A stretch of 64,000 bases of DNA from an uncultured Rhodobacteraceae bacterium (GCA_947503175.1 CANNCO010000006.1:62323-126322), one strand, 5' to 3'; positions 30,175 to 58,080 are shown, counted from the first letter of the stretch. Made by a program: numbers and translations. The notes: generated from the sequence alone by a model not told the origin.

Positions 30175-30883
30175 GAGCACGGGGAAAAACGCGCTGATCG
30201 ATCTGCGCGGGATCAGCCGGGTCTATGGTGAGGGCGAAACAGAGGTTCGCGCGCTTGACGGGATCGATCTGGCCATCGACGAGGGCGAGTTCGTCGCCAT
30301 CATGGGGCCCAGCGGCTCCGGCAAATCGACGGCGATGAACGTTATCGGTTGCCTCGACAGCCCGACAAGCGGAACCTACCTGTTCGATGGTGTCGAGGTG
30401 GCGAATCTGACCCGGGATCAGCGCGCGCTGCTCAGGCGTCACTATCTGGGCTTTATTTTTCAGGGCTACAATCTGATCGCCCGCTCAAGCGCGCTCCACA
30501 ACGTCGAACTGCCCTTGATCTACAAGGGCATGCCGCGTGCCGAGCGGATCAGGGCCGCTACGGCCGCGCTTGAGAAAGTTGGGCTGGCGCACCGGGATCA
30601 TCACGATCCGTCCGAGCTGTCGGGCGGGCAGCAGCAACGCGTCGCCATCGCCCGTGCGCTTGCGGGTAATCCGCGTGTCGTGTTGGCCGACGAACCGACC
30701 GGCAACCTTGATACGACACGATCGATCGAGATCATGGAGGTGTTGCGCGACCTGAACCGCAACGAGGGGCTGACCATCGTAATGGTCACCCATGAGGACG
30801 ACATGGCGCAGTTCGCGGATCGCCTAGTCTGGATGGTTGACGGCCGGATCGAAAGCGACAGCCCGACACAGAGGGCCGCCTGA
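30167..30883 (+). CDS. ABC transporter ATP-binding protein (MacB/LolD type)
   Basis: GPSGSGKST, LSGGQQQRVAIARAL, LADEPTGNLD. Confidence 0.95.
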   Translation: MAESTGKNALIDLRGISRVYGEGETEVRALDGIDLAIDEGEFVAIMGPSGSGKSTAMNVIGCLDSPTSGTYLFDGVEVANLTRDQRALLRRHYLGFIFQGYNLIARSSALHNVELPLIYKGMPRAERIRAATAALEKVGLAHRDHHDPSELSGGQQQRVAIARALAGNPRVVLADEPTGNLDTTRSIEIMEVLRDLNRNEGLTIVMVTHEDDMAQFADRLVWMVDGRIESDSPTQRAA

Positions 30884-30884
30884 G

Positions 30885-32096
30885 ATGATCTGGGAAGCCG
30901 TCAAACTTGCGGTGCAGGCAATCTTCCGAAACGCATTGCGTTCGTTTCTGACCGTTCTCGGGATCGTGATCGGCGTCTCGGCCGTCATCGCGATGGTTAC
31001 CGTCGGACAGGGATCGACAGAGCAGGTCACAGCGGATGTCGAGAAGTTGGGAACGAACGTCCTTATGGTCATGCCGGGACAGGACGCAATGCAGGGCGGT
31101 CCGGCCACCACCGCGATCCAGCAGTTCAACATACGCGACAACGAGGCCCTGCAAGAGCAACTGGCCATAGTCGACATCTCCGCGCCGCTCTCCTTCTCCC
31201 GCGCGCGGGCTGTTTTCGGAAATGAAAACCGCCGTACCGATATCATCGGCACCGACAACCGGTACTTCGAGGCAGCACGATGGGAAGTCGCCATCGGCCG
31301 GGTTTTCGAACCTTCGGAAATCCAGTCTGGCAAGCCTGTATGCGTGTTGGGCGAAACCGTGCGGAAAAGCCTGTTCGGATATGCCGACCCGGTGGGCGAA
31401 ACGATCCGGATCAAGACGCTGTCCTGCACGGTGATCGGGCTGTTGCAGTCGAAGGGCGCCTCGACCTTCGGCAGCGATCAAGACGACTTCGTGATCATGC
31501 CGATCAAGGCGTTCCAGCGGCGCATCGCGGGAAACACCGACGTCTCCACCCTCTATCTCTCGGTACATGAAGGCGTCTCAACGGACCGCGCAAAGGAAGA
31601 AATCGAGCGTTTCATGCGCGAAATCCGTCATATAGGCGCGAACGAAGACGATGATTTCACTGTCATGGACATGAAACAAATCTCGACCATGCTGTCCGGG
31701 ATAACCGACATCCTCACCGGGCTGTTGTCGGCGGTCGCGGCTGTCAGTCTTCTTGTCGGCGGGATTGGGATTATGAACATCATGCTCGTGTCGGTCACCG
31801 AAAGGACCCGCGAAATCGGCATCCGACTGGCCATCGGCGCACAGGCGCGACAGGTGCTGACACAGTTCCTGGTCGAGGCAATCGTGCTGTCCCTGATCGG
31901 CGGGTTGATTGGGGTCGTGCTCGGGCTTGTCCTGGGCTTTGTCGGCGCTCAGATGCTTGCCGTGCCTTTCGCGCCCGAGCCTGGCGTTGTCCTACTTGCC
32001 TTTGCGTTCTCGTTCGCAGTGGGGGTGATCTTTGGCTACTTTCCGGCACGGCGCGCCGCAAACCTTGATCCGATCGAGGCATTAAGGCGCGAATAG
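30885..32096 (+). CDS. MacB/FtsX-type ABC permease
   Basis: RSFLTVLGIVIGV, LLVGGIGIMNIMLVSVTERTREIGIR, PARRAANLDPIEALR. Confidence 0.93.
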   Translation: MIWEAVKLAVQAIFRNALRSFLTVLGIVIGVSAVIAMVTVGQGSTEQVTADVEKLGTNVLMVMPGQDAMQGGPATTAIQQFNIRDNEALQEQLAIVDISAPLSFSRARAVFGNENRRTDIIGTDNRYFEAARWEVAIGRVFEPSEIQSGKPVCVLGETVRKSLFGYADPVGETIRIKTLSCTVIGLLQSKGASTFGSDQDDFVIMPIKAFQRRIAGNTDVSTLYLSVHEGVSTDRAKEEIERFMREIRHIGANEDDDFTVMDMKQISTMLSGITDILTGLLSAVAAVSLLVGGIGIMNIMLVSVTERTREIGIRLAIGAQARQVLTQFLVEAIVLSLIGGLIGVVLGLVLGFVGAQMLAVPFAPEPGVVLLAFAFSFAVGVIFGYFPARRAANLDPIEALRRE

Positions 32097-32133
32097 CACA
32101 ACACTTCCGCAAAAGCCGTCAGGCGCCACACGT

Positions 32134-32147
32134 TTGACCACGATCAA
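32134..32147. promoter_or_regulatory. FNR/FixK-type box TTGAC-CACG-ATCAA upstream of ppsA
   Basis: Centre about 64 bp upstream of the ppsA ATG. Confidence 0.78.
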
Positions 32148-32204
32148 AGCTGTACCTGCAGGGATCGTTAGCATCGCTGAGGATCGTCAAAAAAGGAGAA
32201 CTCG

Positions 32205-34598
32205 ATGGACCAGAGCAACACCCCGAAACAGAAGTCGCTGATATGGCTCGAACACCTGAAACGGGAGGATGTTGCAAAGGTTGGTGGCAAGAACTCGTCG
32301 CTTGGCGAGATGCTGCAATCCCTCGATGTGGCCCAGATCCGTGTGCCGCCGGGTTTCGCCACCACCTCCGACGCCTATCGTGCCTTCATGAAGGCCAATG
32401 CGTTCAGCGATGTCCTGAAGGAGGAACTCGCCAAACTGGAAGATGGCCGGTCGAGCCTCGCCGAAGCCGGGCGCGAGATCCGCGCCACGATTGCTAGCGG
32501 CGTCTGGCCCGAAGAAATCGAAACCGATATACGCGCCGCTTACCGCGAACTGGGCAACCGCGTCGGACGGGCCGACCCGTCCGTCGCCGTCCGGTCATCG
32601 GCAACAGCCGAGGATCTGCCGGATGCAAGCTTTGCCGGACAGCAGGAGACATTCCTGAATGTCGTGGGAGAAGAGGCACTGCTGGCCGCGTGCCGGCGCT
32701 GCTTCGCATCGCTCTTTACCGACCGGGCCATCACCTATCGCCAGATCAAAGGCTTCGACCACATGGAAGTGGCGTTGTCGATCGGCGTTCAGCTTATGGT
32801 CAGGTCCGACATCGGCGGCTCCGGCGTGATGTTCTCGATCGACACCGAAAGCGGCTTCGACAAGATCGTACTGATCAACGCGGCCTGGGGTCTGGGCGAA
32901 AATGTCGTCCAGGGCGCGGTCAGCCCCGATGAGTATCAGGTCTATAAACCGTTTCTGAACCGCGAAGGCCTGACGCCCATTGTCCACAAGGCCCTTGGCG
33001 CGAAGGAAATCAAGATGATCTACGGTCAGGCCGGGGCACCCGCAACGCGGAACGTCCCCACATCCAAGGCCGAACGGGGCAACTTCGTCCTGTCAGATGC
33101 CGACATTCTGGAACTCGCGCGGGCGGCCGTACTGATCGAGGATCACTATGGATGCGCGATGGACATGGAATGGGCCCGCGATGGCGAGGACGGGCTTCTC
33201 TATATCGTTCAGGCGCGTCCGGAGACGGTGCAATCACGCGTCGATGCGGGCGCGATGAAGACCTACACGCTTGGCGACCATGGCGAAGCATTGCTGACCG
33301 GGCTGAGTGTTGGCGGTGCCGTCGCGTCGGGTGAGGTTTGCATCATCGAAAGTGCGGCGGATATCGATCGGTTCGTCGACGGATCCGTTCTTGTCACATC
33401 CACGACCGACCCCGACTGGGTACCGATCATGAAACGCGCCGCGGCTATCGTCACCGATCATGGCGGGCGTACATCACACGCGGCCATCGTCAGCCGGGAA
33501 CTGGGCGTTCCCGCCATCGTCGGCACCGGAAACGCAACCCATGTTCTTCATGATCATCAGATGGTTACCGTCTCCTGCGCCGAGGGCGAAGAGGGCATGA
33601 TCTATGCCGGCGAAGCAGAAGTGACGGTCGCCGAGGTGCGCATAGATAAGGTTCCGGAGACCCGGACGAAGATCATGCTGAACCTCGCCAACCCACAGGC
33701 GGCGACACGTTGGTGGCGGCTTCCGGCAGATGGCGTTGGTCTTGCCCGCATGGAGTTCGTCGTCAGCAACGAGGTGAAGGTCCACCCCCTTGCGCTGACC
33801 CGCTACGACGAGCTGGACTCAGCCGAAGATCGTGCTGCAATTGACGCGCTGACCGAAGGTTACGAAGATCGGGCGGACTACTTCGTCCACAAGCTCGCCA
33901 TGGGGTTGTCGCGGATCGCGGCGGTTTGGTACCCGCATCCGACGATCATCCGGATGAGCGATTTCAAGACCAACGAATATGCAGACCTCCTGGGCGGGCG
34001 CATGTTCGAACCGCAAGAAGAAAACCCGATGATCGGGTTCCGTGGCGCGTCGCGTTACTACTCCGACCGGTACAAGGACGGGTTCGCTCTGGAATGCCGG
34101 GCAATCCGCTATCTGCGGGATCAGATGGGGTTCGACAACGTAGTGGTCATGATCCCGTTCTGCCGCACGCTTGACGAAGCCGACCGCGTCTTGGACGTAA
34201 TGGCCGAACAGGGTCTGAAGCGCGGCGAAAACGGGTTGCAGGTCTACGTGATGTGCGAGGTCCCCTCCAACGTGATCAGCGCCGAGGCGTTTGCCGAACG
34301 GTTTGACGGTTTCTCTGTCGGTTCGAACGATCTGACCCAGCTCACACTCGGGATCGACCGCGATTCCGAGGCGTTGGTCGGTCTGTTCGACGAGCGCGAT
34401 CCATCGGTTATCTGGATGATCGAGACGGTCATCACCAAAGCGCATGCGGCTGGGCGGAAAGTCGGGCTTTGCGGACAGGCGCCCAGCAACGATCCAGACT
34501 TCGCCCGGCTTCTGGTCAATGCGGAGATCGACACGATCTCGGTCACGCCGGACAGTTTTCTTGCGGTGAAAGAGCGCGTCGCCAAGGCGGAAAACTGA
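32205..34598 (+). CDS. ppsA: Phosphoenolpyruvate synthase
   Basis: VGGKNSSLGE, AVRSSATAEDLP, GGRTSHAAIV phospho-His, FSVGSNDLTQL, GLCGQAPS. Confidence 0.97.
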   Translation: MDQSNTPKQKSLIWLEHLKREDVAKVGGKNSSLGEMLQSLDVAQIRVPPGFATTSDAYRAFMKANAFSDVLKEELAKLEDGRSSLAEAGREIRATIASGVWPEEIETDIRAAYRELGNRVGRADPSVAVRSSATAEDLPDASFAGQQETFLNVVGEEALLAACRRCFASLFTDRAITYRQIKGFDHMEVALSIGVQLMVRSDIGGSGVMFSIDTESGFDKIVLINAAWGLGENVVQGAVSPDEYQVYKPFLNREGLTPIVHKALGAKEIKMIYGQAGAPATRNVPTSKAERGNFVLSDADILELARAAVLIEDHYGCAMDMEWARDGEDGLLYIVQARPETVQSRVDAGAMKTYTLGDHGEALLTGLSVGGAVASGEVCIIESAADIDRFVDGSVLVTSTTDPDWVPIMKRAAAIVTDHGGRTSHAAIVSRELGVPAIVGTGNATHVLHDHQMVTVSCAEGEEGMIYAGEAEVTVAEVRIDKVPETRTKIMLNLANPQAATRWWRLPADGVGLARMEFVVSNEVKVHPLALTRYDELDSAEDRAAIDALTEGYEDRADYFVHKLAMGLSRIAAVWYPHPTIIRMSDFKTNEYADLLGGRMFEPQEENPMIGFRGASRYYSDRYKDGFALECRAIRYLRDQMGFDNVVVMIPFCRTLDEADRVLDVMAEQGLKRGENGLQVYVMCEVPSNVISAEAFAERFDGFSVGSNDLTQLTLGIDRDSEALVGLFDERDPSVIWMIETVITKAHAAGRKVGLCGQAPSNDPDFARLLVNAEIDTISVTPDSFLAVKERVAKAEN

Positions 34599-34617
34599 TC
34601 CAACCGGGATCGAGCAG

Positions 34618-34644
34618 AGCCTCACCGTCACGGACGGTGAGGCT
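34618..34644. terminator. Perfect 12-bp stem-loop AGCCTCACCGTC-acg-GACGGTGAGGCT between convergent genes
   Basis: 20 bp after the ppsA stop; only a short T-run follows. Confidence 0.6.
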
Positions 34645-34809
34645 TCGCGAACCAGCCATCCGGCAATGACGCTGCGGCCCGTCCCTGCCCCGCCATAAGC
34701 GCGTACTCCGTCGGACTGCTACGAAAGATCTGCAGTCAGCCGTGCCAGACGAACCCTATCAGGACGTCGCAGGAAGGCGGCGGCAAACTGATTGCAGCAG
34801 TGACGGCAT

Positions 34810-35826
34810 TCAGGCTTTGGGGCCGATGATCGCCCTGATCTTCTCAAGGGTCGCCGCGCTGACCGCAACGCCGGTTCTCTGCGCTGTAAAGCGTTTCGCC
34901 CGACGGCCATCGCCCGGCAGATGCGCACCTTCCTGCGTACAGATGGCCTGAACCAGATCGGCGATGCGTGTTTCGAACACCTGGCCGGACGCCGCCGCCG
35001 GATCAATTGCCAGAAAGAACTGACCCGTGCGCGGCGGGCCACCCTTGGTTCCCGAAAACGGCGATGCGTCGATCCCAAGCTGTCCGCCCGAAAGCGCCGC
35101 CGCCATCACCTCGACCAGAAGCGCCACGCCGACACCCTTGTACCCCCCCGAGGGTGCCATTGAACCTTTGAGCCCCACCTCCGGATCGGTCGTGGGCTGC
35201 CCTTCGGCATCAAGCGCCCAGCCGACTGGAATGGCGCGGCCTTCACGGGCGTGTTTCATCACCTCGCTCTTCGCAATCGTGCTCGCGCTCTGGTCGATCA
35301 GGATCGCAGGCTCGACACCCGCGCCCGGAACTCCGATCGAAAAAGGGTTCGTTCCGACGACAGGCTTTGCCCCGCCTGAGGGCGCGATCGAGGCCGGCGC
35401 ATTGGTGAACCCGATTCCCACCAGACCCGCACGCGCAAGACGTCCCGTGTGATAGCCCAGTACCCCGCAGTTATAGCTGTTGCGAATGGCCAGCGCAGCC
35501 ACGCCCTGTTCGCGCGCGAGCGGGATAAGTCTTTCAAATCCCTTATCAATTGCCGAATGCGCAAACCCGGTCGCGGCATCCACCGTCAGCATCGCCGGTC
35601 GCGGCTGTGTCAGAACGGGGATCGCGCCTCCGTCGACCTTGCCACATTGCACATGCTCACAATAGATCGGGATATAGGCCAACCCGTGACTTGCCACGCC
35701 ATCGGCTTCGGTCGCCGCTGTCGCAACAGCCAGCGGGCGCGCATTCTCCGGTGTCGTTCCGGCTGCGACAAGCGCACGAAACGCTAGGTCTTCGACCGCT
35801 GTCAGGCTCAGTGTCTCGGTGTTCAT
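34810..35826 (-). CDS. Ldh_2 (malate/L-lactate/sulfolactate dehydrogenase-like) oxidoreductase
   Basis: EADGVASHGL, VGTNPF, GGYKG.G.AL..E; substrate unknown. Confidence 0.88.
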   Translation of the reverse strand: MNTETLSLTAVEDLAFRALVAAGTTPENARPLAVATAATEADGVASHGLAYIPIYCEHVQCGKVDGGAIPVLTQPRPAMLTVDAATGFAHSAIDKGFERLIPLAREQGVAALAIRNSYNCGVLGYHTGRLARAGLVGIGFTNAPASIAPSGGAKPVVGTNPFSIGVPGAGVEPAILIDQSASTIAKSEVMKHAREGRAIPVGWALDAEGQPTTDPEVGLKGSMAPSGGYKGVGVALLVEVMAAALSGGQLGIDASPFSGTKGGPPRTGQFFLAIDPAAASGQVFETRIADLVQAICTQEGAHLPGDGRRAKRFTAQRTGVAVSAATLEKIRAIIGPKA

Positions 35827-35838
35827 CTATCGCCCCTC

Positions 35839-36471
35839 TCAATCGGTATCGGTCAGTCCCGCACCCGCGCCCAAAAGACGGGATTCCGCGGTCGCGGGCG
35901 CATAGGTCCGGTGAGCAAAGCGGTTCAGCGTCTCCCACACGCCTTGTTCCGGCATCGCTCGGGACATCTGGCGGTTCGGTGCTCCCAGCAACCCTCCGCG
36001 GCACACGGTGATGAAATCAACCCGCGTGCCAATCGGACCCGTAAGGCTGATCCTGTCACCATCGGTCACAGCGGCGCCCGCAGGCCAGCTGACCGTCACC
36101 GTGTTTCGCAACTGACGCGCCGCGTGGGCCGCGAAGGGGAACAAAAGGCACGGCGCCGCGACCGGTCCCATCCGAATATCCCGGTCGGCAAGGTCCAGGG
36201 CACAATCCGAAAGGGCGGCCCCGGCGATCAGGGGACAAAGCACACTGCCCTTCCCATACCATCCCGTATCGTCCGGCAGCGGCACGCGCTCCGCGAGATC
36301 CACACCATCGAACCGCTCAATCAGACCGGCAAGCGCCCCGCAGCCGTCGATATCGTTGGCGCATAGCCAGCGAACGGCTTTCGCGGCCTCTTCGGCGAGG
36401 CCCCATTGATAGCCCGCGCCCCGCGTCGCTCTCTTCGCCGTCGCCTCGACCTCATTCAGCGAGACATTCAT
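35839..36471 (-). CDS. DUF3726-like protein
   Basis: SLNEVEATAKRATRGAGY.WGLAEEA and C-terminal RTYAPATAESRLLGAGAGL.D.D. Confidence 0.75.
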   Translation of the reverse strand: MNVSLNEVEATAKRATRGAGYQWGLAEEAAKAVRWLCANDIDGCGALAGLIERFDGVDLAERVPLPDDTGWYGKGSVLCPLIAGAALSDCALDLADRDIRMGPVAAPCLLFPFAAHAARQLRNTVTVSWPAGAAVTDGDRISLTGPIGTRVDFITVCRGGLLGAPNRQMSRAMPEQGVWETLNRFAHRTYAPATAESRLLGAGAGLTDTD

Positions 36472-38153
36472 TTCGCCTCGTCCGGATAGACCCAGAGATC
36501 GGCATTGGCCTCGGTCAGCTCCTCCGGATAAGGCGCGCCGGCATACATACAGATACGCACCCAGCGGTCAGATCGCGGATCGAAATGGGTTGCACCGAAA
36601 AACGAAAGCTTCGCACGCAGCATATCGATCGGAAGAACGTTTTTGCCGATCGTATTGTCGCGGATTTCACCATAGGGCGCGATCCGGCTCATCTGCGCGC
36701 GCCGGATCGTGTGGCGGTGCTCGGGATGCCGAAGCAGGAATGCGGCGACCGGCTGGTCATCCTGCCAATCGGCCAGTCCCGCATGGGCGGCGGCTGCATC
36801 GCGGGCCGGGGCGAGAGGTTGCTCGTACTCGGCAATCGGTTCCTCGAACCGAGCGCCCAGACGCGGTTCGAGCTTTTCTTCCGAAACATACCATGCGCGG
36901 GCGCAGTTTTCCGTCGCCTCCCAATCCCGTTTCAAAGCCCAGCCAAAGCTCTCCGCGATCAGGGCGCGCACCGTCCCGACCGGCATCCTGCCGTCGATCC
37001 GAAACGCATCGGCGTTGCTATCGGCCATGCAATCCGCCAACCCGTCCACAAGATCGGGATAGGGTTCGAGGATCAGCGACGCGATCAACTCCTGCCCTTC
37101 CTCGCTCAACGCCGCCATTGACCAGTTGCACAAACGATCCCACGAGCGTCCGGATTGCATGTCATCTCGGGCGACATAGTCGTTTATCGCTGCGAGGTCG
37201 CGGCGCAGGTCGGCCAGTTTCCGCATCTGGATCGGATGCTCGGAGGTCCATCGGTCGATGGATCGTCCACTCCGGCTCAGGATGCCACGAAAAGCACGTG
37301 CCTCCTCGGCACTCGCCTTCGTCAACCCGCGAACCCGCGAAATCGCTTCTTCCCGCGCGACGATCCAGTTGTTGAACAAAACCGGGTGGTTGACGATGAA
37401 CGGCGCCATCCCTAGGCCGGTGGAATTCCCGATCCCCAGACGGCGCGCAATCGCCGGGTCCAGATCGGCAGCACTGTTGCCGCCGGCGGCACGTGCCATA
37501 TGCTGAACCAGATCGCGAACGAAGGTGCGGGTCAGATAGACCGACAGCATCTCTGCCTGAAAGGGCACGTGCAGTTCAGGCCGGTCAGCGATTGTCTCGC
37601 GATCCGCTGCCCCGAACTTGCCGGACCCATAGACCGCCGTGGTCCGCATCAGATAGCCCACCGCGTCGATCTGACCGGGATCCGGTTGACGACCCGACGC
37701 CAGCGCATCGACCACATGCGCCCAAAGTCGGACAGAACGGTTCGCTCGTGACAGGCTCAGTTCAGTCTCATCTACACGCCCGGCTTCCTGCAACGGTACG
37801 TTCCGCGACAGCCGTTCGATATCCTCCGGTCCCGGGATCCCGTCGAACAGCGCAAACGTCGCGTCCCATGCGTCCGCTATGACCCGATCCGACCGTTTCT
37901 CCGGCGGAAGATCATGGGCAAAAGCCACAAGCGAATAGGATCGTGCCGGACCTGTCGCCGTATAGACCGCATGGCCGACGCCCTGCGCGTCGATATCGAA
38001 AACGGGGCGTGAAAACCGCCAATGCTCCCGCGACATCCGCCGGGTCAGCACACGCATGAAACTCAGACGACACTGGTGCAGCGACCCAAGCCGCTTCAGT
38101 CGCATGACGGTTTCCGGGGGCCGCCGGGGAATATGTGTCACATCCGGTGTCAT
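36468..38153 (-). CDS. Hypothetical protein, 561 aa, no recognisable domain
   Basis: Long ORF translationally coupled (ATGA) on both sides; contains YLMRTTAVYGSGKFG and LGIGNSTGLGMAPF. Confidence 0.85.
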   Translation of the reverse strand: MTPDVTHIPRRPPETVMRLKRLGSLHQCRLSFMRVLTRRMSREHWRFSRPVFDIDAQGVGHAVYTATGPARSYSLVAFAHDLPPEKRSDRVIADAWDATFALFDGIPGPEDIERLSRNVPLQEAGRVDETELSLSRANRSVRLWAHVVDALASGRQPDPGQIDAVGYLMRTTAVYGSGKFGAADRETIADRPELHVPFQAEMLSVYLTRTFVRDLVQHMARAAGGNSAADLDPAIARRLGIGNSTGLGMAPFIVNHPVLFNNWIVAREEAISRVRGLTKASAEEARAFRGILSRSGRSIDRWTSEHPIQMRKLADLRRDLAAINDYVARDDMQSGRSWDRLCNWSMAALSEEGQELIASLILEPYPDLVDGLADCMADSNADAFRIDGRMPVGTVRALIAESFGWALKRDWEATENCARAWYVSEEKLEPRLGARFEEPIAEYEQPLAPARDAAAAHAGLADWQDDQPVAAFLLRHPEHRHTIRRAQMSRIAPYGEIRDNTIGKNVLPIDMLRAKLSFFGATHFDPRSDRWVRICMYAGAPYPEELTEANADLWVYPDEAK

Positions 38154-39127
38154 GCGCCGCCAGGTCCGAAATTGTCGCGGAAAAACCGGTACCAGTTGCC
38201 GCCCATGATCCCCGAAACCTCCTTTTCGTTCATCCCGACCTGCCGCAGCCCGGCTTCGATGTTGGCGAAGTCACGGTTGTCGCGGAACCATTCCGGCATG
38301 GTTGGAAATCCCGGAGCCGCGGCCGAGCCCTCGCCATAATCGACTTCCTTGGTCCAGCGGCCCGTGCGCATCCATTCCACCACACTGTCCGGTTGATCCT
38401 GGCACAGGTCTGTCCCGATGCCGAGCTGATCCGTGCCGAACGTTTCCGCCGTGCGGGCAATCATTTCGCAAAAGCTCTGCAGCGTGCAGTCGGACTTGTC
38501 CTTCAGGTGATGCGGATAGACCGAAAAACCCAGCATACCGCCATTTTCGGCCACGGCACGGATCACATCGTCTTTCTTGTTACGCAGGGCCGGTGCCCAT
38601 GAATGGGGATTGGCATGGGTGATCGCAATGGGGCGCTGCGAAAGCTCGGCGGCTTCGATCGTCGAGCGGTCCGCCGAATGGCTCATGTCGATCACCAGAC
38701 CCACACGGTTCATCTCTCGGATCACCCGCTTACCCATGCGGGTGATGCCTGTGTCCTCGGCTTCGTAGCAACCGGTCGCCAGAAGCGACTGGTTGTTATA
38801 GCTCAGTTGCATGAACCGCGCGCCCAGCGTGTGCAGTATCTCGACCAGCCCGATATCGTCTTCGAGGGGCGACGGGTTCTGGAAACCAAAGAAAACCGCC
38901 GTGCGCCCGGTTTCGCGCGCCCTGTCGATATCGCTTGCCCACAGACCCTTCATGATGAGGTCGGGGAACTGCTCGAACCAGCGGTTCCACTTCTCGAAAT
39001 TCAGAACCGTCTCACGGAATGTCTCGTGATAGGCGATGGTGACATGGACAGCGTCCACACCCCCCTCCCGCATCTGCCGAAACACCTTTTCCGACCAGTT
39101 GGCATATTGCAGCCCGTCGATCCGCAT
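38150..39127 (-). CDS. Membrane dipeptidase (M19, amidohydrolase fold) family protein
   Basis: IDGLQY, FGFQN, QLSYNNQ, EMNRVGLVIDMSH, ITHAN, GIGTD, IMGGNW. Confidence 0.9.
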   Translation of the reverse strand: MRIDGLQYANWSEKVFRQMREGGVDAVHVTIAYHETFRETVLNFEKWNRWFEQFPDLIMKGLWASDIDRARETGRTAVFFGFQNPSPLEDDIGLVEILHTLGARFMQLSYNNQSLLATGCYEAEDTGITRMGKRVIREMNRVGLVIDMSHSADRSTIEAAELSQRPIAITHANPHSWAPALRNKKDDVIRAVAENGGMLGFSVYPHHLKDKSDCTLQSFCEMIARTAETFGTDQLGIGTDLCQDQPDSVVEWMRTGRWTKEVDYGEGSAAAPGFPTMPEWFRDNRDFANIEAGLRQVGMNEKEVSGIMGGNWYRFFRDNFGPGGA

Positions 39128-40578
39128 CAGTCTGGCGCTCCGGAACTGATATAGGCGGTCTTGACGGTGGTATAGAACTCCGCCGCCGCCTCGCCCTGTT
39201 CGCGCGGGCCGTAAGAGCTGTCACCGCGCCCGCCAAAAGGCACATGATAATCCGTACCCGCGGTCGGCAGATTGACCGTGACAACTCCGGTTCGCGCATT
39301 GCGCCGAAAGTGGGTCGCGCGGGCAAGGTTCTGCGTAACGATACCCGAGGTCAGCCCGAAATTCGTGTCGTTCACCGTGGCAAGCGCCTCATCGTAGCTG
39401 CCGACCCTAATGACCGAGGTCAGGGGCGCGAACATCTCTTCGCGGTTGATCCGCATATCGTTCGTGGTGTTCAGGAACACACCTGGGCTCATGTAGTGGC
39501 CCTGATACGGCATATCGAGCCGCGCGCCGCCGCAAGCCAGTTCCGCGCCCTCGGACTTGCCCAGATCGACATAGCCAAGGTTCTCGTTCAACTGCTGTTC
39601 ACTGACAACCGGACCCATCTGGGTGCCCTCTTCCAGCGCGTGACCAACCTTCATGGCTTTCGCCCCTGCAACCAGTTTTTCGACGAAGGCGTCATGGATG
39701 CCCGCATGTACGACCAAACGCGACGAGGCGGTACATTTCTGGCCGGAGCCGCCAAAAGCCCCGCCAAGGGCCAACGTGACAGCCAGATCGAGATCGGCGT
39801 CATCCATCACGGCGAGCGCGTTCTTCGATCCCATTTCCGCCTGGATCTTGGTGAAGTTCTGTACCGCCGCCGCCGTGATACCACGGCCCACGGACACCGA
39901 TCCGGTAAAGGAGATCGCATTCACCTTCGGGCTTTCGACCAGACGCTGCCCGATCGTGCGACCTGCGCCCATCACAAGGCTGAAAAGCCCGCGAGGGATG
40001 TCCTGGCGGTCGATGATTTCGGCCAGCGCCACGGCGGAGGCGGGCGTTACATTCGCGGGCTTCCACACAACCGCATTGCCATAACACAGGGCCGGAGCGA
40101 TCTTCCAAGACGCGGTTGCGGTCGGAAAGTTCCAAGGCGAGATGACGGCGACAACACCCACCGGTTCGCGACGTATGTCGACTTCGACCCCGGGGCGAAC
40201 GCTGTCGGCGTTCTCGCCGATCTGGCGTAGGCATTCAGCGGCATAATACGTAAAGAACTGCCCGGCGCGATAGACCTCGCCCTTGCCTTCTGCCAGCGGT
40301 TTGCCCTCCTCGCGGCTCAGCAGCGTGCCAAGCTCTTCGGCACGCGCCATGAGCTCCGTTCCGATCGCCATCAGCACGGCCTGCTTGCGCTCCATCCCGT
40401 AGGCTGCCCATTGCTCCTGCGCCACCCGCGCTGCATCCAGTGCGCTCTCGAGCTGATCCGAACCCGCTTGCGCAAAAACGCCGATCAAATCGCTCAAATC
40501 GGACGGATTGCGGTTCTCGACTTCGGCCTCGCCCTCCGTCCACTCTCCCGCGATGTAATTGCGTTTGATATCGGCCAT
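39127..40578 (-). CDS. Aldehyde dehydrogenase (KGSADH/YcbD-like)
   Basis: ISPWNFP, FTGS, EMGSKN, GQKCTASS, EEMFAP; ATG at 40578 with GGGAG RBS. Confidence 0.93.
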   Translation of the reverse strand: MADIKRNYIAGEWTEGEAEVENRNPSDLSDLIGVFAQAGSDQLESALDAARVAQEQWAAYGMERKQAVLMAIGTELMARAEELGTLLSREEGKPLAEGKGEVYRAGQFFTYYAAECLRQIGENADSVRPGVEVDIRREPVGVVAVISPWNFPTATASWKIAPALCYGNAVVWKPANVTPASAVALAEIIDRQDIPRGLFSLVMGAGRTIGQRLVESPKVNAISFTGSVSVGRGITAAAVQNFTKIQAEMGSKNALAVMDDADLDLAVTLALGGAFGGSGQKCTASSRLVVHAGIHDAFVEKLVAGAKAMKVGHALEEGTQMGPVVSEQQLNENLGYVDLGKSEGAELACGGARLDMPYQGHYMSPGVFLNTTNDMRINREEMFAPLTSVIRVGSYDEALATVNDTNFGLTSGIVTQNLARATHFRRNARTGVVTVNLPTAGTDYHVPFGGRGDSSYGPREQGEAAAEFYTTVKTAYISSGAPD

Positions 40579-40657
40579 TCCGGCACTCCCCGATCTTGTC
40601 ACGCACAGAGTGGACGGCGACCGCAATATCAGTCAAACTCAAACTTCTTAATAAAAT

Positions 40658-40672
40658 TTCAGAAATATTGAA
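40658..40672. promoter_or_regulatory. LysR-type site TTCA-GAAATAT-TGAA (T-N11-A)
   Basis: Inverted repeat in the AT-rich divergent promoter, 3 bp before the LysR ATG. Confidence 0.55.
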
Positions 40673-40675
40673 GTA

Positions 40676-41569
40676 ATGGCCATCAAGATCGAAATGCTCC
40701 GCTGTTTCGCCACGGTTGCCGAAACGGGCAATCTGTCAGAGGCTGCCACACGGCTTGGCCGCACCCAATCCGCGATATCCATGACGCTCAAGCAATTGGA
40801 AGAACATCTGGGGCAAAGGCTTTTCGAAAGCGAGCGCAAGAACCGGCTGAGCGCACTTGGACTACGGGTCTTCGAACTGGCCCAGCAACAGCTTCGGCAG
40901 TTCGACGACACGATCAGCGCGATCGAGGCCTCGGCAAGGTCGCCGCAGGGACTGTTGCGGATTGCATCGGTTCCCTCTGCCGCCGGACTTTTACTGCCAC
41001 CCGCCATCGAGGTTCTGATGCAACGGCATCCCGGCTTGAAGATCGAGATACGGGATGCCGACACGCGCACGGTTCTGGACGCGCTGGTCGGCGGCAAGGC
41101 GGACTTGGCGATTGTCTCGGGCCTCCACGCCCTGAATGGCATCCGGACCCAGCTATTGTTCGATGATCCCTTCGGGCTGATCTGCGGGCCGGATCATCCA
41201 CTTGCGCTCCGGACAGCGCCTGTCAGGTTGCATGATGTCCTCGCCTCCGACTTCATCGGCAACGAACTCTGCCGCCAGATCAAGCAGGACTCGATCCAGC
41301 GCGCGCTGTCCGAGGCACACTTGACGGTGCACAATACGCTATCGCTTATCGGGATGCTGCGGACGGGCAAGCGCGTGACGATCCTGCCGAAAACGGTGCA
41401 CGAGATGCTGCCGGGCCAGTTGGTGTTCAAGGAGATCCCGGACCTCCGCGTGCCACGCCCTGTCGTGGTGCTGGTGGCCGAAAGGTCGCCTCAAAGGGCC
41501 TTTGCCGATGAGTTCGCGACGATCATCCGGGCACTTACCCAGCAGATGCGGGCGGCGGAGGAGGCGTAG
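40676..41569 (+). CDS. LysR family transcriptional regulator
   Basis: LRCFATVAETGNLSEAA..LGRTQSAISM.LKQLE HTH. Confidence 0.93.
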   Translation: MAIKIEMLRCFATVAETGNLSEAATRLGRTQSAISMTLKQLEEHLGQRLFESERKNRLSALGLRVFELAQQQLRQFDDTISAIEASARSPQGLLRIASVPSAAGLLLPPAIEVLMQRHPGLKIEIRDADTRTVLDALVGGKADLAIVSGLHALNGIRTQLLFDDPFGLICGPDHPLALRTAPVRLHDVLASDFIGNELCRQIKQDSIQRALSEAHLTVHNTLSLIGMLRTGKRVTILPKTVHEMLPGQLVFKEIPDLRVPRPVVVLVAERSPQRAFADEFATIIRALTQQMRAAEEA

Positions 41570-42275
41570 GCACGGCCAGATACGCCTCGCGGGGGATGCG
41601 AACCAACTCGCGAATGCCCAACTGCCCCAGAAGCGCAGGACCGGCCTGTTCCAAGGCCCCGCTCACCGCCATGGCCACTTCATCCGCGTCATTCGTCTTT
41701 GCCGTGATCAGCGGCAGACCGGGGGTTGGCGGGGTCCGCCCGATAACGGCGATCCCGTCGAAAGCGGGCTCTGAGCCGATGTGGCGCCACGTCACCGCGT
41801 CGACAAACGCGACATCGGCGCGGTCCTCTGCCACCGCCAGCGCCGAAGAGCGGTGCGATCCGGTTGCCGTTGCACGCCCGAGCGCTGTTCCTCGCTCTTC
41901 CGCATATGCATGGGCTGCAGCCCAGCCCGACTGCGATAAAGCGTCGTTGTAGGCAAGCCGATACCCGGAAGCCGGAAAACCAGAATGCCTGCCATTTCGC
42001 GCAAGAATGACGCTGAAGTAATGGCCGGGCGGGCAATCGTCCAAGCCGTAATCCGGCGTCCCGACCAGACCAACCTCTTCCGACAACCGGGCGCGATAGG
42101 GAAACCCGCAGGTCTGCGACAGAGCAAGGTCCGGCGCGCGCCACTGTTGCCAGAGATCTCCGCCACGGGTCAGTTTCTGCGGCCCATATCCCAAATTGGC
42201 CCGGATCAGATCCCAGAAGGCATCGTTCGCCGCCGCCGTATGCGGGAAATCATACATGGGCAGGCTGGCAATCAA
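41535..42275 (-). CDS. PhnD/SsuA-like substrate-binding-fold protein without a signal peptide
   Basis: ASLPMYD, QTCGFPY, SQSGW, TGSHRSS..AVA..RADVA.VDAVTW; TTG start overlaps the upstream stop. Confidence 0.75.
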   Translation of the reverse strand: MIASLPMYDFPHTAAANDAFWDLIRANLGYGPQKLTRGGDLWQQWRAPDLALSQTCGFPYRARLSEEVGLVGTPDYGLDDCPPGHYFSVILARNGRHSGFPASGYRLAYNDALSQSGWAAAHAYAEERGTALGRATATGSHRSSALAVAEDRADVAFVDAVTWRHIGSEPAFDGIAVIGRTPPTPGLPLITAKTNDADEVAMAVSGALEQAGPALLGQLGIRELVRIPREAYLAVPTPPPPPASAG

Positions 42276-43495
42276 ATCACGGCCTTCTCGATCAACGGAG
42301 CATTGCGGCTGATCCGGTCGAAATGAAACGGCGACAGATCGAGCGCGCGATACTCGCCGTAAGTCAGCCATTCCGCCGTCGCCCGGCCCATTGCGGGGGA
42401 TTGCTGCAGGCCATGGCCCGAGAACCCGTTCAAGAAGATGAAATTCGCGACCTCCGGATGCGGCCCGAGGATCGCGTTATGATCGAACACGTTCATCGAG
42501 TACTGACCTGCCCATTCGCTCGTGACCCGGATCGCCTCGAACTGCGGGACGCGGTTGGCCAAAACAGGCCAGATGTGGGTTGCCCACAGGCTGTGATCCA
42601 TCTCGAAGTCGTCCGGATCAACCGCCGGATCAATGTCGGAATGACCACCGCACATATAGGTCCCTCCGCCGTTCTCCCGCACATGGACGCCCGAGGGGTC
42701 TATCGTCAGCGGCAGATCACCGTCAATCGGACGTTCGGCGGAAAAGATCCATGTATACCGTTTGCGCGGTTCCACGGGCACCTCGATCCCCACCATTGCC
42801 GCCGTGCGCGCCGCCCGCGGACCGGACGCATTTACGACCTGCCCGCAAGAGATGACCTGACCAGAGCGTAACGTGATGTTCTCTACCCTGGTTCCGGCCC
42901 TATTGCGGGTGATCGCAACCACTTCGCCGGCGACATATTCGACCCCCCGCTCCCGCGCCTGCCTGCGCCACCAGTCGAACACGGTGGCCCCATCCCAGTA
43001 CCCCTCGTCTACGGTATTGATCGACCCAAGGACGATACCATCGACATTGTAGAACGGGTATGCCCGCACAATCTCTTCCGGGGTCATGAGGTTCGTCGCC
43101 GCACCCGCCGCCCGCTGCACTTTCTGATTGTCGCGCAGAACCTGTGCGAACTCCTCTGTATCCGCCAGATACAGGTACCCGAAATTGCGGATCGACAGGT
43201 CGGGCACCCGCGCGTCGCCGCCCATATGGCGTCGGATATTTTTCACGAAATCCGCCGCGAACTGCGAGATGCGGATATTCAGCTCGGTCGAGAACTGCTG
43301 GCGCATGCACGAGTTCGTATGGGCGGTCGAACACTTCTCGTAACTCGGATCCTTTTCGATCACGAGCACCGACCCCTGAAAGTCCGGGTTGTCGGACAAA
43401 AACCACGCCGTAGACGACCCCATGATCGCGCCACCGATGATCACCACGTCATAGCTCGACTTGCTGGCCTGAGAGGAAAACCCCCGCGCCGCCAT
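42272..43495 (-). CDS. FAD-dependent oxidoreductase (DAO/sarcosine oxidase superfamily)
   Basis: YDVVIIGGAIMGSS, VVNASGP, GFSGHGLQQSPA.GR. Confidence 0.9.
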   Translation of the reverse strand: MAARGFSSQASKSSYDVVIIGGAIMGSSTAWFLSDNPDFQGSVLVIEKDPSYEKCSTAHTNSCMRQQFSTELNIRISQFAADFVKNIRRHMGGDARVPDLSIRNFGYLYLADTEEFAQVLRDNQKVQRAAGAATNLMTPEEIVRAYPFYNVDGIVLGSINTVDEGYWDGATVFDWWRRQARERGVEYVAGEVVAITRNRAGTRVENITLRSGQVISCGQVVNASGPRAARTAAMVGIEVPVEPRKRYTWIFSAERPIDGDLPLTIDPSGVHVRENGGGTYMCGGHSDIDPAVDPDDFEMDHSLWATHIWPVLANRVPQFEAIRVTSEWAGQYSMNVFDHNAILGPHPEVANFIFLNGFSGHGLQQSPAMGRATAEWLTYGEYRALDLSPFHFDRISRNAPLIEKAVI

Positions 43496-43779
43496 CAGAA
43501 GACCTCCCCCAGCTTCGCGCGGGCTAGAATGTCATCGATCTCGGAATACGTCAGCCCGTACTGGTCCCGGGCAACTTCAGCGGTGATGTAACCATGGGCC
43601 AGATCGCGCCGAATGTCCGGCATCGCCCGCTCCCTTGGCACCCCATGACCGGCACCGCCCGGAAACGCCATCTGCACCCGGCGGCCATGGGCGACAAACT
43701 GCGTGCCCTTCCCTTTCATCTCCATGCCGTCATCCCGCGCTATGCGCGTCGGCGCACCGGGTCGGCCGCCAGCGCCATA
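43495..43779 (-). pseudogene. C-terminal remnant of a hydantoinase B/oxoprolinase gene
   Basis: Frame reads YGAGGRPGAPTRIARDDGMEMKGKG...FPGGAGHG...RDLAHGYIT....YG (HyuB-type C-terminus). In-frame stop at 43782-43780; no N-terminal part present. Confidence 0.65.
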
Positions 43780-43811
43780 TCAAAAAGCTACGCCCGAAAG
43801 CGATGATTGCC

Positions 43812-44864
43812 TCAACCGGACGCCTGCCGGTTCTCCGCGATGCGGCCATCGACGGTTTTTGAAACCGCGTCGATCCTCGCATCCGACAATCCGACCTGAT
43901 CGGAGATCAGCTTCACCAGCAGGTCGACGCGCTCGATATTCTCGGCACCGCTATCGATGGCCCGCGCAACCGAAGACGGCTTCAAAAGCCCCTCGGCGGC
44001 AGCACTGTATTTCGCAAAGGGCACGCCATCCTCGGGATCGGCGCCAAGCTTCCGCACGATCTCGTCCACATGGGCATAGATGCTTTCCGACAGCGCAAGA
44101 TCGCTATGCACCGCCTCGCGGATCGGACGCACGCCCTCCGCTTCGATACAGCGGTAGTTCCCGGTCAGAAGCATGCTCCATTTCGCGAAGGGAACGAACA
44201 GGGAGGCGTAGACCCGCAGCTTCACGGGCACGTCGTGCCCATCAAGGCGCACATCGGCGATATCGGCCTCCAGTGTCCGCAGAATTTCGTTATGGGCCTC
44301 GTCGGCAAATGCCGCCGCCTTGAAATTGGTGGGCAGCCCCACGAACAGGACATTGGCTTTCTCGTCCGGCAGCCGGAATGCCTGCGGATCAGGGCTGCAT
44401 AGCGTCACGACATCCGGGTCAAACCCGGCCCAGACATCCGGCGCGGTATAGGCTGCGTCCAGCTTGCTCGCATCCAGGCCCGGAATGCGGTGCAGATAGG
44501 GCAAGGGCGGCATGTTCATGATCGACAGGCAGGGCAGCCGCGCCTCTGCGATCCGCCGCATCAGCGCGCGAATGTCCGCCGTCCCGTATTGCGGCTCGGC
44601 CATCGCAAGGGCGACCATATCGTAATTCGCGATATCGACGTTCTCGGGCGCAACCGCGTCCAGCTTGCCCGGCTGATCCCCTGACAGGATCGATCGATGC
44701 GTATCTTCACCGCGCAGCTTGATCCGCACATCCGTGCCTTCGGCGTTGATCAGATCCGCCGTCGCCTGACGGCACACAAGGGTCACATCATGCCCCGCCA
44801 TCAAAAGCTTGGTTCCAAGCAGAGAGCCGTATGAGGCGCCAAGGATCAGGATTTTATAGGCCAT
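43812..44864 (-). CDS. Ketopantoate-reductase-like Rossmann-fold protein
   Basis: KILILGASYGSLLG N-terminus, PFAKW, KPSS; function unknown. Confidence 0.7.
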   Translation of the reverse strand: MAYKILILGASYGSLLGTKLLMAGHDVTLVCRQATADLINAEGTDVRIKLRGEDTHRSILSGDQPGKLDAVAPENVDIANYDMVALAMAEPQYGTADIRALMRRIAEARLPCLSIMNMPPLPYLHRIPGLDASKLDAAYTAPDVWAGFDPDVVTLCSPDPQAFRLPDEKANVLFVGLPTNFKAAAFADEAHNEILRTLEADIADVRLDGHDVPVKLRVYASLFVPFAKWSMLLTGNYRCIEAEGVRPIREAVHSDLALSESIYAHVDEIVRKLGADPEDGVPFAKYSAAAEGLLKPSSVARAIDSGAENIERVDLLVKLISDQVGLSDARIDAVSKTVDGRIAENRQASG

Positions 44865-44918
44865 TGAAGGTCCCCCAATATGTAAGCTGCCCGCACGCTT
44901 TACGCGAACCTGCGATTA

Positions 44919-46436
44919 TCATCCAGCGGCATTGCCTTCGCGCATCCTGCGGCGGACGAGATTGATCAGCGGAAGGAACAGCAGGATAATCGCGATGACG
45001 GTGATCGGGCCCGCGATGGGCCGGGTGAAGAAGATCGACGGATCGCCCGATGACAGCAGAAGCGATTGCCGCAATGTCGGCTCGGCAATCGGGCCAAGAA
45101 CGATGGCCAGAACCGCCGGGGCCAGCGGATAGTCGAATTTCCGCAGGAAGAAGGCACTCAGCCCGAACAGGACCATCAGCCAGACGTCATGCATGTCCTT
45201 GGTCGCGGCATAGCCACCGACGATGGACAGCACAAAGATCAGCGGCGCCAGCACGGTGAACGGCATCCGCAACATCCAGATGAACAGCGGGATGAAGGCA
45301 AGGTTGATCACCAGCGCAGCCACGTTCGAGACATAGAACGACCCGATCAGGCCCCAGACGAACTCGCTCTGCTCGACAAACAAGCGCGGACCCGGGGTCA
45401 GGCCCCAGATCACCATCCCGCCCAAGAGAATGGCCGTTGTGGGCGAGCCGGGGATACCCAGCGTCAGCATCGGCAGCATGGACCCGGTCGAGGCAGAGTT
45501 GTTCGCGGCTTCGGGCGCGGCGACACCACCCGGATGGCCCTGCCCGAACTCCTTGGGGTTCTTCGACACCATCTTGGCCACGCCATAGGCCATGAGCGAA
45601 CCCGGCGTCGCGCCCGCCGCTGGCAGGATGCCGACGAAGAAGCCAAGGAACGACCCGATCGTGGTACCCTTCCAGCCGCGCTTCATGCCCTCTTTCGAGT
45701 CGTTGACGATGCCCTTGACCGACATCTTGGCCTCGGATGTCGTGACCTTCCCGCGCGTGGTTTCAATCGTCCAAAGCATCTCGCCGATGCCATAGACGCC
45801 GATGGCGAGGACAAGGAAGTTGATGCCCTGCAGAAAGCCGGTGATGTCAAAAAACACCAGACGCGGCGCGCCGGAAATCTGGTCAAACCCGACAGCGGCC
45901 AGAACAAGGCCAAGGCAGATCGAGAAGATCGTCTTGGGGATATCGTCGCCGCCAAGCCCCACGAAGGTCGCAAAAGCCAGAAGCATCAGGGCAAAGATCT
46001 CTGGCGGACCGAAACTCAGCGCGACGGCGGCCAGAAGCGGCGCGAAGGCGGTGAACAGGATGTTCGCCACGCTCCCGCCGATGAAAGACGCAATCGCAGC
46101 CGTGACAAGCGCAAGGCTCGCCCGGCCTCTTAACGCCAACGGCCTGCCGTCAAACGTCGTGGCGACTGCAGTCGATGCGCCCGGAATGCCAAGCGTGATC
46201 GAACTGATCGCGCCCCCGTACATCGCCCCGTAATAGATCGCGGCCAGAAAGATGATCGCCGATCCCGGCGGCACCAGAAATGTTATCGGCAACAGGATCG
46301 CGACCCCGTTGACCGAACCCAAACCCGGCATCGCACCGATGAAAAGCCCCAGCGTTACACCCACAAGGATCAGCGCAAGATTCAGCGGCTGAACCGCCAA
46401 CAGCATTCCATCGCCAAGAAGTCCGAGAATTTCCAT
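44919..46436 (-). CDS. tctA: Tripartite tricarboxylate transporter large subunit
   Basis: GAMPGLG, YGGAISSI..GIPG, APEAANNS, LTLGIPGS. Confidence 0.95.
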   Translation of the reverse strand: MEILGLLGDGMLLAVQPLNLALILVGVTLGLFIGAMPGLGSVNGVAILLPITFLVPPGSAIIFLAAIYYGAMYGGAISSITLGIPGASTAVATTFDGRPLALRGRASLALVTAAIASFIGGSVANILFTAFAPLLAAVALSFGPPEIFALMLLAFATFVGLGGDDIPKTIFSICLGLVLAAVGFDQISGAPRLVFFDITGFLQGINFLVLAIGVYGIGEMLWTIETTRGKVTTSEAKMSVKGIVNDSKEGMKRGWKGTTIGSFLGFFVGILPAAGATPGSLMAYGVAKMVSKNPKEFGQGHPGGVAAPEAANNSASTGSMLPMLTLGIPGSPTTAILLGGMVIWGLTPGPRLFVEQSEFVWGLIGSFYVSNVAALVINLAFIPLFIWMLRMPFTVLAPLIFVLSIVGGYAATKDMHDVWLMVLFGLSAFFLRKFDYPLAPAVLAIVLGPIAEPTLRQSLLLSSGDPSIFFTRPIAGPITVIAIILLFLPLINLVRRRMREGNAAG

Positions 46437-46484
46437 GGGTCTTCCAGTTCTCTTCTGAGAAACCAGGCGCGACCGGTCGGGCGC

Positions 46485-46988
46485 CTAGTAGATAATCTCG
46501 TACATCACGTTGAAGAACGGCTCGGTGAAATCCATGCCCTTCGGCATCGTGATCCGCATCAGGCCCTCAAAGAAAAAGAAGAAACCGATCGGCAGGCAGA
46601 TCGCCAGACTGAGCGTCAGGAACCACGAATGCCGCCCGAGGAACTTCAGGTAGTACAGCAGGAACAGGAACATCGCGCCGTACATCGAGATCACGTCGAT
46701 CAGGGCTACAAAGCCCAGGATCCCGCCACCCACGAACAGAAGCGTCTTCCAGCCTTCGCGGTCCAGCACCGGTTCTTCGGAGCGGGAAGGCGGAGAGGTC
46801 CGCCTTACCCAGTTGATTGCGATGAACACGGTCGTGACCAGCATGATGGCAGACAGCCAGAACGGCCATGCGCCACCTCCGGGGCCTTCGCCCCGGACAT
46901 AGCCGATCTCAAGTTCGGCACTTTCGGACATAAGATAGATGGACAGAAGCGCCAGCACGCCAGCCGTAATAATCTCACCCAGCCGCAT
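46485..46988 (-). CDS. tctB: Tripartite tricarboxylate transporter small subunit
   Basis: Four TM segments, GPGGGAWPFW; lies between tctC and tctA. Confidence 0.9.
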   Translation of the reverse strand: MRLGEIITAGVLALLSIYLMSESAELEIGYVRGEGPGGGAWPFWLSAIMLVTTVFIAINWVRRTSPPSRSEEPVLDREGWKTLLFVGGGILGFVALIDVISMYGAMFLFLLYYLKFLGRHSWFLTLSLAICLPIGFFFFFEGLMRITMPKGMDFTEPFFNVMYEIIY

Positions 46989-47032
46989 GCTGGCTCCCCC
47001 TTATCCCTTGGTCCGAACCGCCCCGGTCAGGC

Positions 47033-49314: not shown

Positions 49315-49418
49315 CCCGCTCCCCTGCCTATCGCCCCCGCCCTCAAACCCCCGGGTGGCCAAGCGAAGGCCTATATGATTAATCCGGTGACGTCCTGCAA
49401 ACAATGCGCGAGCCTGCC

Positions 49419-58076: not shown

Positions 58077-58080
58077 CAAG

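Follow-up and report, generated by a model that had tools for sequence, protein, structure and literature searches.

A probable homarine catabolic operon with a DpkA-like candidate reductase gene in an uncultured Rhodobacteraceae bacterium

Here we examine a gene cluster at positions 34810-41569 of a 64,000-nucleotide stretch of DNA from an uncultured Rhodobacteraceae bacterium (GCA_947503175.1, CANNCO010000006.1:62323-126322), the whole of which is referred to below as the window. The cluster is very probably an operon for the catabolism of homarine (N-methylpicolinate), in which homD, homC, homB, and homA are followed by a DpkA-like reductase gene, and which is controlled by a divergently encoded regulator of the LysR family, HomR, binding a conserved TTCA-N7-TGAA box. 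The system as such is already known, and the novelty that is left lies in the putatively co-transcribed DpkA-like gene, as a candidate for the final reductase, and in HomA and HomB, a pair without a fold match. A previous sequence-only reading had described the locus as a LysR-linked operon for breaking down a small, betaine-type nitrogenous metabolite of marine origin, which stands, and as an orphan cluster acting on an unidentified compound, which does not, given its match to the published homABCD and homR genes. Recognition of the homarine operon keeps this locus from being counted as a novel pathway.

Few nitrogen-containing metabolites are more abundant in marine phytoplankton and invertebrates than homarine. 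Its catabolic operon, homABCDER, was defined in Cobetia sp. OBi1 (ACFLL8_11490-11520) and Ruegeria pomeroyi DSS-3 (SPO3188-3192) using transcriptomics, knock-outs, metabolomics, and isotope tracing (Ferrer-Gonzalez et al., Nat Microbiol, March 2026; PMC13236597). According to that study, HomA is a small protein that pairs with HomB, the two having been modelled as a heterodimer, the function of HomB is not known, HomC resembles peptidases, HomD is an aldehyde dehydrogenase, HomR serves as the regulator, and homE is an optional accessory gene that is missing from DSS-3 and from 94% of the operons in Alphaproteobacteria. Mutants of DSS-3 in homB, homC, homD, and homR (SPO3189-3192) and a homD deletion in Cobetia fail to grow on homarine, and a Vibrio isolate carrying the operon grows on it. 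The ring is opened with retention of the N-methyl group and loss of one carbon, yielding N-methylglutamate, which is demethylated to glutamate by NMGDH (mgdABCD). The adjacency of homA and homB is 97.7%, and the homB and homA profiles are highly specific (PMC13236597).

Methods

Locus comparisons covered 80 species-level loci, the best 80 from a genome scan with a 17-sequence HomB alignment, with neither R. pomeroyi nor Cobetia included; the gene content of each locus was read from tblastn tables. In HomB protein searches, one of which was seeded with HomB of R. lacuscaerulensis, DSS-3 and Cobetia were not among the matches listed. The structure of HomB was predicted using AlphaFold2; a single-sequence input gave a predicted local distance difference test (pLDDT) value of 34, and an alignment of 49 sequences was used for the final model. 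Four public sequencing runs from one 2024 study (X1-X4), about 99.3% identical to the window, were mapped on positions 30000-46000, and coverage is given as word depth. The steps of the proposed pathway were all inferred, with trigonelline catabolism taken as the analogue and with the help of the formulas given in PMC13236597.

Results and discussion

Layout of the operon and correspondence to DSS-3

The genes of the operon lie on the minus strand. The first, homD (39127-40578), encodes an NAD(P)-dependent aldehyde dehydrogenase (ALDH) of 483 amino acids (aa; Pfam Aldedh, 3.5e-151) and is followed by homC (38150-39127), encoding a 325-aa metallo-amidohydrolase of the M19 family and proposed deformylase (Peptidase_M19, 3.8e-73), and by homB (36468-38153), encoding the 561-aa core enzyme, which belongs to a large family without a Pfam or NCBIfam model. 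Next come homA (35839-36471), which encodes the proposed HomB partner subunit, a 210-aa DUF3726 protein in which the domain match (6.2e-23) covers the N-terminal 60 residues only, and the sixth gene of the locus (34810-35826), which encodes a 338-aa DpkA-like NAD(P)H oxidoreductase of the Ldh_2 family (6.9e-94). Divergent from these, on the plus strand, a homR-type gene (40676-41569) encodes a 297-aa regulator of the LysR family (HTH_1, 3.4e-17; LysR_substrate, 2.9e-35). The ALDH and M19 genes overlap by 1 base (39127), the M19 gene and homB by 4 bases (38150-38153), and homB and homA, which are adjacent and co-oriented, by another 4 bases (36468-36471), while a gap of 12 bases (35827-35838) separates homA from the Ldh_2 gene. 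The gene set, its Pfam assignments, and the junctions on the minus strand are all as the sequence-only reading had them.

One gene start is revised. The full ALDH open reading frame (ORF) spans 39127-40626 on the minus strand and reaches a TTG at 40626; the start is most likely the ATG at 40578, which is preceded by GGAG 7 nt 5' of it and would give the protein of 483 aa, and the alignments to NCBIfam ALDH models start at ORF residue 17. With the ALDH start set at 40578, the intergenic region to homR is 97 bp.

Gene by gene, the locus corresponds to that of DSS-3: SPO3192 (homR) to the divergent LysR gene, SPO3191 (homD, ALDH) to the ALDH gene, SPO3190 (homC, peptidase) to the M19 gene, SPO3189 (homB) to the 561-aa ORF, SPO3188 (homA, annotated as 'hypothetical') to the DUF3726 gene, and, by position, SPO3187 (annotated as 'ComC', of the Ldh_2 family) to the Ldh_2 gene. 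The two loci share the same gene families in the same order, adjacent homA and homB, and an Ldh_2 neighbour, but the published gene set does not include the sixth gene, the DpkA-like reductase gene of the window. No homE was found at the window locus, and neither a RidA nor a SnoaL homologue lies there; because homE is optional, its absence does not exclude the locus from the hom operons. HomB of the window is 64-74% identical to HomB of Phaeobacter and Aliiroseovarius, 67% identical to that of Ruegeria sp. TM1040, and 38% identical to the Vibrio HomB encoded in a Cobetia-type operon.

Conservation of the locus in other genomes

The genes keep together in other genomes. A DUF3726 gene directly follows the HomB gene in 76/80 loci, an M19 gene lies upstream of it in 73/80, and an ALDH gene is present in 55/80, an arrangement that is far from chance. 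Where related loci of the roseobacter clade carry an ALDH, it is in most cases syntenic with the homD ALDH and 76-88% identical to it, and the divergent LysR gene stands at the matching position in the closest related loci. The Ldh_2 gene directly follows homA in 33 of the 80 loci, and in 22/26 of those with a HomB identity of at least 68%. Plasmid copies of the operon are annotated in Aliiroseovarius crassostreae, Phaeobacter piscinae, and Ruegeria sp. TM1040, where they have a common order: sarcosine-oxidase-family (mgd-like) genes, a helix-turn-helix regulator, and LysR, then, divergently, ALDH, dipeptidase, (BCCT), hypothetical, DUF3726, Ldh oxidoreductase, and (BCCT), the brackets marking the two positions given for the transporter. 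Genes of the mgd-like type adjoin the operon in loci L001, L002, and L088 and in several GTDB loci.

A link to BCCT transporters, for which a neighbourhood check had been suggested, is found in relatives, namely in the hom loci of Phaeobacter, Vibrio, and Pseudomonas. The order reported for Cobetia (homE-homA-homB-homT-homC-homD-homR; PMC13236597) is mirrored in Vibrio and Phaeobacter loci (DUF3726 - HomB homologue - BCCT - M19 - ALDH - LysR), and the Vibrio and Pseudomonas loci follow it with an internal BCCT gene (homT). In the latter two genera a RidA-family gene lies beside the ALDH or transporter gene (Vibrio harveyi, L085/L086; Vibrio sp. THAF190c, L084; Pseudomonas sp. MPC6 plasmid, L087), and V. 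harveyi carries, besides this gene, a SnoaL-like gene after homA. Because a RidA gene is found in these Vibrio and Pseudomonas loci, we infer that homE would be a RidA-family gene. The operon of Pseudomonas MPC6 is split into ALDH-M19-BCCT-RidA and HomB-HomA around the LysR gene and resides on a conjugative plasmid.

Control region and read depth

The control region at 40579-40675, to which no strand is assigned, contains three elements within a footprint shared across 18 genera. These are the palindrome TTCAGAAATATTGAA at 40658-40672, which has the form TTCA-N7-TGAA and contains T-N11-A; TTTGAGTTTGACTGA at 40629-40643, with a -35-like TTGACT hexamer; and GTCCAC at 40610-40615 (GTCCAC/T across the genera). 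Invariant columns of the footprint include T4 T5 C6 A7, T39-A47, and C63 C64 A65. Since TTCA-N7-TGAA is common to 18 aligned intergenic regions from other genera, the T-N11-A palindrome that had been read from the window is real and under selection. The regulator beside it, with its HTH_1 and LysR_substrate domains, is the divergent LysR protein of that reading. Classical scans for sigma-70 promoters and terminators gave nothing useful in the region.

The public runs cover the operon very unevenly with respect to its surroundings. In X1, a single high-depth contig, a putative polycistronic transcript, spans 34646-40592 on the minus strand at a depth of 66.6; the corresponding contigs span 34321-40591 in X2 (depth 46.6) and 35748-40513 in X3 (depth 90). 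These contigs have about 10 times the flanking depth: flanking genes have a depth of 0-12 and the LysR gene a depth of 0 in X1-X3, and X4 is low throughout. In X1 and X2 the Ldh_2 gene is inside the homDCBA contig, and the contigs end at 40592 and 40591, respectively, 14 nt upstream of the ALDH ATG. For a library type that is unrecorded, the depth profile is putatively that of a polycistronic mRNA running through the Ldh_2 gene, unlike that of genomic DNA, and the pattern among runs would be consistent with some samples having been exposed to homarine and others not.

HomB and HomA as a two-part enzyme

HomB has no Pfam family even at E<=10 and no NCBIfam or PDB sequence match, and its more than 8000 homologues, which form 1482 representative clusters at E<=1e-3, are all named 'hypothetical'. 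The structure prediction and fold search that had been proposed for 36468-38153 gave a confident model (pLDDT 95.2; predicted template modelling (pTM) score 0.94, with the 49-sequence alignment), for which Foldseek found no matching fold in the PDB (best E 0.12, with a template modelling score of about 0.1). The four motifs singled out by the sequence-only reading are present in the 561-aa translation and fall on invariant or near-invariant columns of the 49-sequence family alignment, among whose conserved columns are S31, F32, Y167, R170, G178, G181, G240, G242, N243, G246, and G248. Conserved residues are mainly Gly and Arg; a single His is near-invariant, and Cys is not among them. In the predicted structure, the GIGNSTGLG segment adopts a strand-loop-helix arrangement and could, as a matter of speculation, be a phosphate- or nucleotide-binding loop.

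In HomA, a C-terminal S-x4-AG motif is conserved; a literature search on DUF3726 found nothing. The idea that the 561-aa and DUF3726 proteins are subunits of one enzyme, raised when the locus was first read, agrees with the published heterodimer model (PMC13236597) and gains independent support from natural fusion proteins. Five of these (P0121, P0123, P0135, P0220, and P0270) consist of HomB with a C-terminal DUF3726 part, are 760-960 aa long, and are 32-57% identical to HomB of the window; the DUF3726 part of P0121 and P0135 matches HomA over its full length (E 6e-12 and 3e-13, respectively). Such fusions would be useful for structural work on the HomAB complex. If HomAB opens the ring, it would do so without any domain or cofactor motif that can be recognised and without a solved fold.

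The DpkA-like gene as a candidate for the reductive step

The best PDB match of the Ldh_2 protein is DpkA (1wtj/2cwf/2cwh), with 206 bits and 37.7% identity over 332 positions, end to end. DpkA of Pseudomonas is a delta1-piperideine-2-carboxylate / delta1-pyrroline-2-carboxylate reductase and also an N-methyl-L-amino acid dehydrogenase, and, with NADPH as the reductant, it converts cyclic as well as N-methyl 2-imino acids. This reaction type is the one needed for making N-methylglutamate, although the substrate specificity of DpkA is not transferable to the Ldh_2 protein because the identity is only 38%.

Tentatively, and as one joint claim, we propose that the DpkA-like Ldh_2 protein is the missing last enzyme of homarine catabolism in roseobacters, an N-methyl-2-iminoglutarate reductase, with a RidA-type deaminase in that slot instead in gammaproteobacteria, and that HomB and HomA together form the ring-opening enzyme on a fold without a solved relative. 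The DpkA-like gene is a concrete and cheaply testable candidate for the reductive step, and such a role, if true, would also put right the naming of SPO3187, a gene of a model organism, as 'ComC'.

Proposed pathway chemistry

The trigonelline pathway of Acinetobacter baylyi ADP1 (TgnAB-TgnC-TgnD), reportedly described by Perchat et al. in PNAS in 2018, is said to begin with an oxidative C5-C6 cleavage of the pyridinium ring in which the N-methyl group is kept. From there it reportedly leads through an N-methylformamido aldehyde or lactol and an aldehyde dehydrogenase to a C7H9NO5 diacid, followed by hydrolysis, with succinate semialdehyde and methylamine as end products. This pathway has been cited as an analogy for the opening of the homarine ring (PMC13236597). 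The route proposed here has its logic in common with it, the likeness being one of chemistry only: unlike TgnAB, HomAB comprises a HomA without a flavin-reductase domain and a HomB without a known oxygenase fold, and the end product of the hom route, N-methylglutamate, is a different one. We considered HomAB as a two-component flavin-dependent oxygenase of the TgnAB family and lowered this option in view of the absent flavin or NAD domain and the lack of a PDB fold match, which leaves unaffected that HomAB could work like TgnAB.

In the proposed route, HomB and HomA together would use O2 to open the ring at the C5-C6 bond, giving an N-formyl-N-methyl enamine aldehyde, the cut being placed between C5 and C6 because N-methylglutamate keeps N1 and C2-C5 and loses C6. 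HomD would oxidise the C5 aldehyde to 2-(N-methylformamido)pent-2-enedioate (C7H9NO5), HomC would strip the formyl group as formate to give N-methyl-2-iminoglutarate or the enamine (C6H9NO4), and the DpkA-like Ldh_2 enzyme would convert the imine, by reduction with NAD(P)H, into N-methyl-L-glutamate. HomC possibly acts before HomD, in which case C6H9NO3 would be the deformylated aldehyde. C7H9NO5, C6H9NO4, and C6H9NO3 have been reported as unidentified formulas that are enriched when homarine is supplied and that acquire label from 13C/15N homarine (PMC13236597), and they fit the formulas of the proposed intermediates. To reach N-methylglutamate (C6H11NO4), an imine must finally be reduced by two electrons, for which none of HomA-D is equipped; the reported intermediates call for such a reductive step, and the published hom gene set offers no enzyme for it.

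The nearest relatives of the individual enzymes can be set beside these steps. The curated families nearest to HomD are 2,5-dioxovalerate and alpha-ketoglutarate-semialdehyde dehydrogenases (482 and 476 bits, respectively, below the equivalog cut-offs), which act on C5 2-oxo-semialdehydes, by analogy the oxygen counterpart of the proposed substrate. HomC has as its best PDB relative 2i5g, an 'amidohydrolase' (203 bits). The RidA gene of gammaproteobacteria fills the accessory slot of the operon, as the Ldh_2 gene does in the window, and belongs to a family acting on enamine or imine intermediates, but it is absent from the window and its product would hydrolyse the imine, not reduce it. Because both lineage-specific accessory genes, the DpkA-like Ldh_2 gene and RidA, handle imines, an imine intermediate is indicated. 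Aldehyde oxidation, amide hydrolysis, and probably imine reduction had been correctly named among the steps when the locus was read from its sequence.

Alternative explanations and points against the homarine assignment

It is unlikely that the Ldh_2 gene encodes (R)-sulfolactate dehydrogenase ComC and stands beside the hom genes without any functional relation to them. SPO3187 is listed as comC, (2R)-3-sulfolactate dehydrogenase, in the 2014 re-annotation of DSS-3 (PMC4334477), and L-sulfolactate dehydrogenase (NF040650) is the top NCBIfam match of the Ldh_2 protein, but at 178.8 bits against a cut-off of 500, and the archaeal sulfolactate dehydrogenase 2x06 scores 131 bits where DpkA scores much better. 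The placement 12 bp after homA, the occurrence of the gene in this position across genera in 33 of the 80 loci, and its inclusion in the high-depth contig also speak against this reading, and the surroundings of the gene in the window showed no sulfonate genes (suyAB, slcD-like); on these comparisons the ComC annotation of SPO3187 may be wrong. We consider it quite unlikely that the whole cluster is a hom paralogue, in which a module of HomAB, M19, and ALDH acts on a different compound, N-heterocyclic or of the betaine type (for example trigonelline, a picolinate derivative, or some other pyridinium compound). The HomB family is indeed large and diverse, and modules of HomAB-like and M19 proteins are also found in the company of different regulators, transporters, and enzymes, as in Sinorhizobium meliloti, whose pSymB (L003, CP130053.1 1323375-1333006) carries an IclR gene, a HomB-like gene (30% identity), a HomA-like gene (242 aa), an M19 dipeptidase, an ABC transporter, and a class-III aminotransferase, with no ALDH in the module. 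Modules of this type are found in about 64 Sinorhizobium plasmid records, and because a HomAB-like pair with M19 is found there in a different context, HomAB and M19 are probably used for other substrates too, the pSymB copy for a different N-compound. Such divergent paralogues are, however, only about 30% identical and without ALDH, whereas the gene order and regulator type of the window match the DSS-3 operon, Ldh_2 neighbour included, the closest relatives have BCCT and mgd-like genes beside the operon, as expected for a conversion of homarine to N-methylglutamate, and the specificity of the published homB and homA profiles (PMC13236597) argues in the same direction. Most improbable is a truly orphan pathway with a new enzyme for an unidentified metabolite, as the cluster had originally been presented: HomB is without a match in Pfam, NCBIfam, and the PDB, by sequence or by fold, and its database names are all 'hypothetical protein', but a paper of March 2026 described the pathway with its substrate and product on the basis of genetics and isotope tracing, and the orphan status is thereby refuted (PMC13236597). 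The 'new enzyme' part of that view survives within the explanation of the cluster as a homarine operon.

Several points weigh against the assignment to homarine and the roles proposed with it. No homT/BCCT gene is present in the 64-kb window, and no mgd- or sox-type genes were found in the scanned part of it, several smaller ORFs being unscanned. Orthology to the Hom proteins of DSS-3 and Cobetia is proposed from layout, family specificity, and published descriptions and not from direct alignment, a point that also favours a paralogue, and because paralogues exist in other contexts, membership of the HomB family cannot by itself fix the substrate. The Ldh_2 gene is lacking in 47/80 hom loci and, as published, in SAR11 (PMC13236597). 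Neither HomA nor HomB has a flavin- or NAD-binding Pfam domain at E<=10, for which reason the oxygenase mechanism of HomAB is put forward here as a hypothesis, and the FAD-binding annotation mentioned in PMC13236597 was not reproduced for the window proteins. Finally, neither library type nor treatment is on record for X1-X4.

Other features of the window

Beside homR lies a second LysR-linked cluster on the minus strand (41535-49404), which comprises a fragment of a phosphonate-binding-like substrate-binding protein, a DAO-family FAD oxidoreductase (42272-43495) with a weak soxB-subfamily match, an ApbA-like NAD-binding protein (43812-44864), a tripartite transporter, TctA/TctB/TctC (44919-48235), and a LysR regulator (48427-49404). 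This FAD-oxidoreductase/TctABC cluster and its DAO gene were considered as parts of the hom system and rejected, as they do not co-occur with hom genes in other genomes. A second 561-aa ORF without a Pfam match (2118-3803, plus strand) was likewise considered as a HomB relative and found to be unrelated despite its equal length.

A 437-aa ORF without a Pfam match (19438-20751, plus strand) precedes a gene for a multihaem cytochrome c (20831-22078). On the minus strand, 14653-18978 encodes an ApbE flavin transferase (14653-15609), a reductase with Fer2, FAD_binding_6, and NAD_binding_1 domains (15614-16834), and an FMN_bind protein (18082-18978), and looks like a flavin-based membrane redox module.

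Towards the end of the window, a Gabija anti-phage system is encoded on the minus strand at 59304-62478, with GajA at 60697-62478 (PADLOC, 3.3e-212) and GajB at 59304-60710 (8e-171). The segment that holds it, 58000-64000, has a lower G+C content than the window before it, falling from about 0.62 to 0.51, and because of this drop it is probably a horizontally acquired defence island. An ORF at 62882-63580 matches the candidate system PDC-S31 (1.2e-23).

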